Below, piece after piece: positions 30,749 through 32,254 of a DNA stretch of 64,000 nt. The DNA comes from an uncultured Alphaproteobacteria bacterium (GTDB lineage Bacteria > Pseudomonadota > Alphaproteobacteria > RF32 > CAG-239). Below the pieces are notes generated by a model. The model was given only the letters and a program-made list of their open reading frames with translations. It searched no databases and had not been told where the DNA came from. The DNA is taken from assembly GCA_944393205.1 (NCBI GenBank), contig CALXZI010000001.1, positions 5,725 to 69,724 on the forward strand. The letters are read 5' to 3'. Position 1 is the stretch's first letter; every line of letters starts with the position of its first letter. Both the position numbers and the translations under genes were made by a program.

Positions 30749-32254
30749 TTACCGCTGATTTGTATTCGGATTACGAGAAATATGCTGCGCACTATGAATA
30801 TCTTGCGCATTATTTTGCGGATTTTGTCGTTTGATGGCAATAACAACGTCCAACAAGTGAGCGATACTGTCTTTCAAACGCTGATTTAATTTCTTTTTAT
30901 TTGCCTCGTTTTGTCTTTCTTTTGATTCTCGTTTTACTTTTTCGGCATTTTCATGCGTCTCTTCCGCTTTAATCAGCGCCGTTTTTATCCGCATTTTCTT
31001 TATACCGCCCGCAAAATCATGTCCTCGCATCCCAAAGCTTTTTCCTTCTTCCGTCTCTCCGCCGTCGTAGACGTCCCGCTTTTGCTCTTGTTTTTGCTTT
31101 TGCTCTCGTTCCTGCTCCCGTTTTCTTTCTTCTTCTCTATATACCGAACCGACCTCTTTGAACATGTCGTATACTTTCAAACCGCCGTATTTATCAACTT
31201 GCTCAAAGCACATCCGACGCCGTTGGTCCATCTCATTGTTGTAAGGCAGATAATCTTCCCGATATAATTCCCGAAAGTTCTGCCACTTCACATCGTCTTT
31301 CGGTATCTCAAAAAACGTCCCGTCTTCAAACACCATCATCGTCATTAAATGCGGGTTTTGTTCTTTGGTTATCATCGTCTCAAAGCCGTCTTCTTCTTTC
31401 TCCGCCGGTTTCATCGCCGTCTCTAATCCATATTCCCGCGTCATCTTCTGACCTTCGGCTTGCACAAACACTTCCACAAACGCAAACTTTCCGCTTACCC
31501 GATTGTTGAATTTCATCCCGCTGAAACGCAACGCCGCCTCAAAACTTGTCGTCCCATAAGTCAACATTCTCCCTTCGTCCTGATTAAAACGATTGTTCTG
31601 ATGCGCCTCTTTCCCATAACTCCGTGCCGAAAACACAAACCTCTCTTCACCAAACTTGGTCTTTAACCGACGCAGATAATCATCGCTGATGCGGTTCTCA
31701 AAAGCTTTTTGGATCATCTCTTCCCGAAATTCATCCCCATAGCGCCCCATAATCGCTTTCACCGTGTCCGGATGCGGATGCTTATAACCCGTAAATTCCG
31801 TCTGATAATTATGCTCATAATCCAATAAATCCGCCTCTTCCGTTAACCCTCGCGGGTTCGGATAACTCATCGGATACACACTCTCCGATTGGATTAAATT
31901 ATCCAAAAGTTCCATAACATCTTTTTTTATTGTTTTTGGGTCAAGATACGGGGTGCGAATGCCGGTGGGAGAAACCACAATCGTGGACGGATCCGCCGCC
32001 TCCGGTGAATCTATGCTCACCGCACGATATCCTTTGGCTCTCAGCTCCGCTATCAATTTCTCCGGATGACGCAGCCGTCGCTCACACGCTTTGTCCGGAT
32101 GACTCTTGTAATATGTATAATCTTCTTTGTCCACCAACCCCAAATACACCATCTTCGGTTCGCTCATCGCTCCCCAGTCCAACATCTGCATGAAATATTC
32201 AACATCATCTGGAAAAATTTCGTGTTCATTATTTAATGGCGTATTTTGAGTCAT
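30749..32254 (-). CDS. hypothetical 501-aa protein with a charged Glu/Lys/Arg-rich tail; possible ADP-ribosyltransferase-like motif set
   Basis: No family recognised. The R (FVFSAR), S/T-S (YGTTSF) and Q-x-E (VQAEGQ) motifs are spaced ~30 aa apart. The C-terminus is highly charged. Confidence 0.45.
   Translation of the reverse strand: MTQNTPLNNEHEIFPDDVEYFMQMLDWGAMSEPKMVYLGLVDKEDYTYYKSHPDKACERRLRHPEKLIAELRAKGYRAVSIDSPEAADPSTIVVSPTGIRTPYLDPKTIKKDVMELLDNLIQSESVYPMSYPNPRGLTEEADLLDYEHNYQTEFTGYKHPHPDTVKAIMGRYGDEFREEMIQKAFENRISDDYLRRLKTKFGEERFVFSARSYGKEAHQNNRFNQDEGRMLTYGTTSFEAALRFSGMKFNNRVSGKFAFVEVFVQAEGQKMTREYGLETAMKPAEKEEDGFETMITKEQNPHLMTMMVFEDGTFFEIPKDDVKWQNFRELYREDYLPYNNEMDQRRRMCFEQVDKYGGLKVYDMFKEVGSVYREEERKREQEREQKQKQEQKRDVYDGGETEEGKSFGMRGHDFAGGIKKMRIKTALIKAEETHENAEKVKRESKERQNEANKKKLNQRLKDSIAHLLDVVIAIKRQNPQNNAQDIHSAQHISRNPNTNQR

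Follow-up and report, generated by a model that had tools for sequence, protein, structure and literature searches.

The locus described here raises the question of what is encoded by a 501-codon orphan gene (positions 30749-32254) in a 64,000-nucleotide stretch of contig CALXZI010000001.1, from an uncultured alphaproteobacterium; this whole stretch is referred to below as the window. The original prediction, made from the sequence by eye, had proposed that the protein might be a mono-ADP-ribosyltransferase toxin, with the adjacent small paralogs as its potential cognate partners. As discussed in the following sections, the gene is genuine, a member of an undescribed protein family, and it forms a two-gene module with a small partner gene that lies beside it almost always. 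The predicted structure of the central domain looks like that of a very divergent ADP-ribosyltransferase (ART), and we give a probability of roughly 0.4 to the reading that the protein is a divergent ART-like enzyme that is regulated by, neutralized by, or acts together with its small partner.

An undescribed family and its small partner genes

The earlier description of the gene holds, because the open reading frame (ORF), the quoted peptides, the charged C-terminus, and the divergent array could all be located. The 501 codons run from ATG to stop on the minus strand, with AAGGAG 10 nt 5' of the ATG and an in-frame stop nine codons further up. The three peptides that had been singled out as an R / S-T-S / Q-x-E series, FVFSAR, YGTTSFE, and FVQAEGQ, lie at residues 206-211, 233-239, and 263-269, respectively. 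Charged residues make up 41% of the last 129 aa and 68% of residues 373-400; the protein combines an acidic globular part (pI 5.1) with a basic tail (pI 9.7). Divergent from the gene, and 104 bp away, is a tandem array of three small paralogs.

No family had been recognized by eye, and none emerged from comparisons of the window protein with Pfam, PHROGs, PADLOC, and NCBIfam; profile scans of distant members and of the partner were likewise blank, with noise-level matches only. A Pfam scan matched none of the nine longer members and none of the 31 aligned members, and sequence and profile searches of the PDB with three alignments (A1, A2, and A3) gave no match. Relatives do exist among unannotated proteins. 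Sixteen of them came from a word-indexed search across 5.8 billion proteins, and exhaustive profile searching of 1.84 billion representatives brought up 56 clusters at E <= 0.001, ranging from 400 to 1533 aa in length and sharing 17-39% identity with the window protein. Repeating the word-indexed search with a diverse alignment added no further members, and a metagenome scan with the narrower alignment A6 yielded four loci. Close relatives occur in four metagenome-assembled genomes (MAGs) assigned to uncultured Alphaproteobacteria or Azospirillaceae, one of them labelled HGM, presumably a human-gut MAG series, and two BRZ. The module of large and small gene is confined to a group of host-associated Alphaproteobacteria, all uncultured. 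It is not a known mobile-element gene, since tblastn against plasmids and phages returned no relatives, and no additional paralogues turned up in the window.

The small genes constitute a second orphan family, with 28 relatives and no Pfam match. Its members share a core that reads [KE]-[DN]-W-x-[IV]-[DN]-x6-7-H-K-x-G, in which W17 and G32 are invariant. A copy lies next to the large gene at most loci, usually divergent and in some clades co-directional (Table 1), while the flanking genes otherwise vary: TrpRS and AcrB in one case, and PagP with KdsA-RecO-ParC, RlmH with LptFG, MarC with RadC, DivIC, or thioredoxin in others. Because the surroundings differ between loci, the pair is the conserved unit, and this pairing is the firmest of the new results. 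Judged by this adjacency, the small paralogues are cognate partners of the large protein, as had been suggested, although the partner is missing beside the large gene at L005-7 and L011/12.

The tandem genes repeat with a 520-bp period. Among the array copies the C-terminal 300 nt are 90-95% identical, in contrast to only 74-81% for the N-terminal third past H-K-x-G, a pattern that suggests a diversified binding surface joined to homogenized tails. Copies 2 and 3 encode strongly acidic products, with net charges of -13 and -15, respectively. Partner variants also look modular: in P0018 the N-terminal half is that of window copy 1 and the C-terminal tail is of the longer type found in L002 (7314-7889); the sequences suggest recombination between the two halves. 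The remnant of a fourth copy is fused to an unrelated hydrophobic 37-codon ORF (33904-34029) that ends before the AcrB terminator. A macrodomain or ARH identity for the partner was considered and rejected, as the protein is too small and has no profile match.

The large protein differs between loci far more than the genes around it. Between the window and L014, AcrB is 76% identical, MFP 59%, and the large protein 28%; between L002 and L005 the figures are 77% for KdsA, 79% for ParC, and 23% for the large protein. Either the large gene would be evolving far faster than its neighbors, or distinct paralogues would occupy similar regions. On either reading, and in view of a decayed copy at L004, an accessory function or one in conflict or host interaction fits better than a housekeeping one. 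At L004 (MAG BRZ_EQ bin53, 7442-8897) what remains of the large gene encodes the C-terminal 303 aa, and a frameshift interrupts the small gene.

The central domain and the ADP-ribosyltransferase superfamily

The counts that follow come from a 31-sequence alignment of the large-protein family, numbered by the window protein. Invariance is restricted to three columns, each of them a glutamate: E227, E278, and E292 (31/31 each). Near-invariant positions are P33, A86, G98, P102, P160, G173, A184, A241, F259, W324, F327, and R345, and the globular core is much better conserved than the tail. With a shallow alignment AlphaFold2 produced an unusable model (predicted local distance difference test, pLDDT, of 53.6), whereas with the 31-sequence alignment the mean pLDDT was 83.4 and the predicted template modelling score 0.72, residues 20-370 being mostly above 90.

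The model places an N-terminal domain (residues 34-135, beta-alpha-beta-beta-alpha-beta; family motif EP.a.f.G ... LR..G..AV...EA.DPS..VVs.TGIqTPf) ahead of the central domain. The latter consists of strands 206-210, 232-235, 257-264, 292-295, 302-309, and 313-316 and helices 238-242 and 322-329, in the order beta-beta-alpha-beta-beta-beta-beta-alpha, which is not RRM-like. Long helices (374-396 and 415-477) and a disordered end (481-501) complete the chain. A polymerase- or palm-like identity for the N-terminal domain was rejected, there being no acidic hairpin motif (the hairpin reads S-x-T-G).

ARTs share a six-stranded split beta-sheet core with an NAD+-binding cleft (PMC8120803), and they were the sole enzyme class to recur in all three of our fold searches. 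The best structural matches of the central domain were PARP3, tankyrase, and viral ARTs, none of them significant. In the BFVD database a Bodo saltans virus "NAD(+) ADP-ribosyltransferase" ranked second (E 0.28), and PolyVal ADP-ribosyltransferases ranked 10th and 25th. Foldseek, which had been recommended as a check on the ART idea, listed ARTs among its matches but gave nothing significant.

In detail the domain resembles the diphtheria toxin (DT)/PARP (H-Y-E) clade, which includes minimal members such as Arr and the phage PolyVal ARTs. Common to both are the six-stranded core (predicted here), an aromatic-x-G at the end of strand 1, a pair of aromatic residues, and an invariant Glu at the start of a strand, with a hairpin after it. 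The strand-1 end reads V-F-S209-A-R in the window protein and L-Y-S-G-R, L-Y-R-G-G or, in one member, C-H-G-G elsewhere; column 208 is mostly [YF] and column 210 is G in 26 members and A in 5. This segment may correspond to the h-h-H-G-[ST] or h-Y-R-G position of known ARTs. The aromatic pair falls at columns 233 (Y24/F5/L2) and 244 (Y20/F10/H1), where the spacing of 11 residues equals that of PARP1 Y896/Y907, in a PARP1 sequence checked against the PDB and 100% identical to it. Diphtheria toxin Y54/Y65 has the same spacing. We infer that Y233, the following [ST], and a helix carrying A241 and [YF]244 are the likely counterparts of the Tyr-x10-Tyr pair or of aromatic-x-S-T-S. E292, the first residue of its predicted strand and next to a hairpin, resembles the catalytic Glu and is a candidate for that role.

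Some features recall instead the cholera toxin (R-S-E) clade (C3, iota, Tre1, DraT). Y-R-G, a feature of C3-like toxins at strand 1, occurs in 8/31 members, an aromatic-x-[ST] follows strand 2, and the E-h-h-h-P after the Glu is reminiscent of the E-x-E-h-L-h-P of R-S-E enzymes. The residues that the original prediction had drawn from this clade fared poorly, however. R211 is weak as a first element and clade-specific, being Arg in 11/31 members and Lys in 3/31, and column 209 (S15, R8, N4, T2, Y1, G1) is Arg in only eight, so that Arg is not conserved at any one column. In the "TTS" triplet T235 is conserved (T19/S10/A2) and is preceded by a small residue (A14 G13 S4 at column 234), but position 236 is variable (P12, L5, T3, others). 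Q-x-E is refuted as a third element and is not a feature of the family, since Q265 is kept in 2/31 members and E267 in 7/31. As to the order of the motifs, a loose R...[ST]3...[QE]-x-E pattern appeared in 165 of 1000 shuffles of the protein and also in 4 of the window's 34 long ORFs, and so is not a signal above chance. The clade is further marked by an ARTT motif, X-X-aromatic-X-X-[EQ]-X-E (PMC8120803); here the residue two before E292 is Q or E in 5/31 members (the window protein reads KEEDGFE), with no [QE]-x-E and no ARTT loop. Because Arg and His are variable and these motifs are missing, the family fails the defining triads of both classical clades yet resembles the superfamily.

Several results weigh against an ART assignment. 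At the His position of the H-Y-E clade, all members but about one have S, R, N, or T, the sole His of columns 208-209 being at column 208 of P0058. E227 and E278 are two further invariant glutamates, before strand 2 and in the loop before E292, that have no assigned ART counterpart; E227 is followed by a basic column 229 (R19/K11). A Foldseek search of the PDB gave nothing significant, its list placing tankyrase-1 at rank 11 and the pertussis-like EcPltA at rank 18, and hhalign comparisons of the central domain with the PARP1 catalytic fragment or with gp532 of Bacillus phage G gave probabilities of only 0.1-0.3%. DT/PARP families, moreover, show no profile match to this one and lack its ferredoxin-like N-domain, charged tail, and dedicated small partner. 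On balance the ART idea is partly supported at the level of the predicted fold and is unproven, and the key residues differ from those first proposed: attention should be on E292, with E227 and E278.

Gp532, ranked fourth in BFVD, was aligned over all 154 of its residues (template modelling score 0.44). This unannotated protein (L023, 27422-27886) carries the motif series YHGT...Y-x-G-T...E and reads KVYHGTS...GHVYLGTSYGVALAHGY...YVVLEF...NIEC...FGEFQIPED, opening with the canonical [YF]-H-G-[ST] of the DT/PARP clade. Its blocks are colinear with LY[SR]G / Y-G-T..A..[YF] / FxFhE.[FY] / x-x-E-T / F-E-I-P-x-D of the family. Its score against a hidden Markov model of the domain fell within that of its own 2000 shuffles, which is not above noise. 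Given its canonical motif series, gp532 is probably a minimal H-Y-E ADP-ribosyltransferase; no relatives of it turned up in the phage collection, nor any sequence match in the PDB. Unlike the present family, it has the canonical His, a single domain, and no partner.

Proposed activity and rival explanations

If the large protein is an ART-like enzyme, its central domain would bind NAD+ in the split-sheet cleft, with Y233 and F244 lining the nicotinamide pocket, at the Tyr-x10-Tyr spacing of the DT/PARP clade. E292 would act as the catalytic Glu for ADP-ribose transfer or NAD+ hydrolysis, and E227 and E278 may serve in substrate or cofactor binding. The small acidic partner, through its W-x-I-D...H-K-x-G core, would bind the large protein as an inhibitor or immunity factor, an adaptor, or a chaperone, and pressure on dosage or specificity could have driven its tandem amplification and N-terminal diversification. 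ARTs with dedicated partner proteins are known, among them Tre1/Tri1 and DraT/DraG (PMC8120803), and DarT/DarG, ParT/ParS, and Tre1/Tri1 likewise consist of two genes, for an ART-like protein and a small cognate protein. As in such toxin-antitoxin or effector-immunity pairs, the module can be lost (L004) and its partner is amplified and diversified. It differs from them in gene order, usually divergent instead of operonic, and in its large protein, which has 400-1500 aa with extra domains. The module also sits in the core chromosome at a partly conserved position, with no plasmid or phage relatives and no PADLOC match, and the partner, having no Pfam match, lacks an ARH/DraG or macro domain.

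These differences bear directly on the toxin originally proposed, a classical R-S-E enzyme with the triad R211/T235-S237/Q265-x-E267 and the small paralogs as its immunity proteins. The motifs do exist in the protein, T235 is conserved as [ST], Y-R-G and the EcPltA match point the same way, and tandem diversified small genes resemble immunity arrays. Against this stand the conservation counts given above, the recurrence of the pattern in 16.5% of shuffles, the mostly divergent gene order in a core chromosomal setting, and the lack of a signal peptide and of an Rhs, type VI secretion, or contact-dependent inhibition context; together they make this toxin very improbable. A non-catalytic scaffold, in which the central domain is a degenerate ART-like or novel binding module, the coiled tail drives assembly, and the partner is a stoichiometric subunit, seems unlikely. 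It would account for the long charged helices, the similar charged helical tail of the window-clade partner, the long uncharacterized extensions of members of 900-1500 aa, the variable His/Arg-equivalent position, and the absence of a significant fold match. Three invariant glutamates amid about 20% identity, one of them at a strand start, form a pattern more typical of active sites, however, and it is the globular core and not the tail that has been conserved. The same carboxylates could instead belong to an enzyme of other chemistry and a new or unrecognized fold, for example a metal-dependent nucleotidyl or phosphoryl transferase or hydrolase built on E227/E278/E292. This we consider unlikely: the RRM- and palm-like matches are most simply explained by the ferredoxin-like N-domain, whose hairpin has no conserved acidic pair, and the strand order of the central domain and the recurrence of ARTs alone argue the other way.

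Genomic setting and Arg-ending tails

Many members end in arginine. The terminal residue is Arg in 33 of 55 full-length members and Arg lies within the last three residues in 42 of 55, as against 5/46 and 12/46, respectively, for long ORFs of the window. In the large proteins it follows a polar disordered tail, and the small partners of most clades end GR, ER, DR, NR, or RR. Arg-rich C-termini act as transport signals of VirB/D4 type IV substrates (PMC10025392). There is no secretion gene in the window, so type IV-like export of the Arg-tailed proteins is speculation. It is a long shot that the two proteins form an exported effector pair, with their tails as a new, perhaps type IV-like, sorting or translocation signal and the large protein as a new ART clade in which the active site would be Ser/Arg-Tyr-Glu, two additional glutamates would be essential, and the target would belong to a host or a competitor.

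Table 1. Coordinates of the module in the window and arrangement of its genes at other loci
Feature	Position or locus	Strand	Remarks
501-aa ORF	30749..32254	minus	ATG start, family member; stop codon 30749-30751
N-terminal ferredoxin-like domain	31850..32155	minus	residues 34-135
Helical linker	31664..31807	minus	residues 150-197; P160, G173, A184 near-invariant
Central six-stranded domain	31250..31645	minus	residues 204-335; candidate ART-like catalytic domain (predicted)
E227 codon	31574..31576	minus	31/31; E-[GS]-[RK] immediately before strand 2
E278 codon	31421..31423	minus	31/31; [DE]-x-G-x-E in loop preceding strand 4
E292 codon	31379..31381	minus	31/31; x-x-E-T-x-[IV]-x-P-x-x-N; candidate catalytic Glu
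Helical tail, heavily charged, net basic	30824..31138	minus	residues 373-477; helices 374-396, 415-477
Polar disordered C-terminal tail	30752..30823	minus	residues 478-501; ends ...TNQR
AT-rich divergent intergenic region	32255..32358		104 bp, large gene to first small gene
Small partner copy 1	32359..32856	+	165 aa; FKDDWEIDP...HKPTGFEI, then charged helical tail ending GR
Small partner copy 2	32876..33376	+	166 aa from ATG; alternative TTG start 32846
Small partner copy 3	33396..33896	+	166 aa from ATG
Fourth-copy start remnant	33904..33933	+	30 nt; ribosome-binding site and MDKEKA
Divergent, 1-3 partner copies	window, L001, L002, L003		window clade
Divergent, frameshifted partner	L004		beside truncated large gene
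Divergent	L009/L010, L015, L016, L017, L018		P0057, P0067, P0070, P0058, and 1426-aa P0066, respectively
Co-directional, partner upstream	L008, L019, L021, L022, partially L014		P0086 (L008); P0050/P0056 clade
Partner absent beside large gene	L005-7, L011/12		P0077 and P0080, respectively

The intergenic region contains one promoter-like site, at 32296-32324 on the + strand. The window as a whole is core chromosome of about 43% G+C, with no tRNA genes and no signs of mobile elements. Its genes include a TrpRS/TyrRS-class synthetase, an AcrB/MFP/TetR efflux cluster, FolD, a DnaJ-like protein, an ELM1-like protein, ClpX, L2, Lnt, MiaB, and PhoH, and with such housekeeping neighbors a prophage or island origin was rejected. 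An overlapping operon encodes a VWA-domain protein (25025-25771), a PP2C phosphatase (25740-26510), and, by a weak match, a Ser/Thr-kinase-like protein of 491 aa (26492-27967). It is followed by a 462-aa protein (28126-29514) with a sub-threshold nitronate-monooxygenase match, the whole group spanning 25025-29514. Further large ORFs without a Pfam match lie at 54966-58541 (-, 1191 aa), 52052-53947 (+, 631 aa), 45297-46553 (-, 418 aa), 19682-20698 (+, 338 aa), and 23368-24207 (-, 279 aa). Two of the products, of 631 aa and 279 aa, begin with a signal- or lipoprotein-like sequence, and all five orphans are unrelated to the large-protein family.

Two other members of the family have features of their own. 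At L009, in the P0057 clade (6825-7875 and 10423-11073), the partner gene and a SIR2-family (NAD+-dependent) gene, both on one strand, share 8 nt, and the large gene has a faint NUDIX gene downstream. Residues 408-562 of P0055 (622 aa) form a Gly-rich hydrophobic C-terminal region, and its match to the central part of large phage proteins with a peptidase or endolysin annotation (phrog_23178, E 2e-23) hints at a membrane-inserting module.

Should the central domain prove to be an active ART, the family would represent a new clade of the superfamily, unusual in its active-site residues and equipped with a ferredoxin-like accessory domain and a dedicated partner protein that are both of a new kind, all in a poorly known lineage of uncultured gut bacteria. 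Rapid divergence of the large gene relative to its neighbors points to a function in conflict or in interaction with the host, as do the amplification and diversification of the small one, and the shared Arg-ending tails could mark an unrecognized sorting signal. Even if the enzymology proves different, two families that had no annotation are now tied together as one functional unit, and the residues to mutate are defined.
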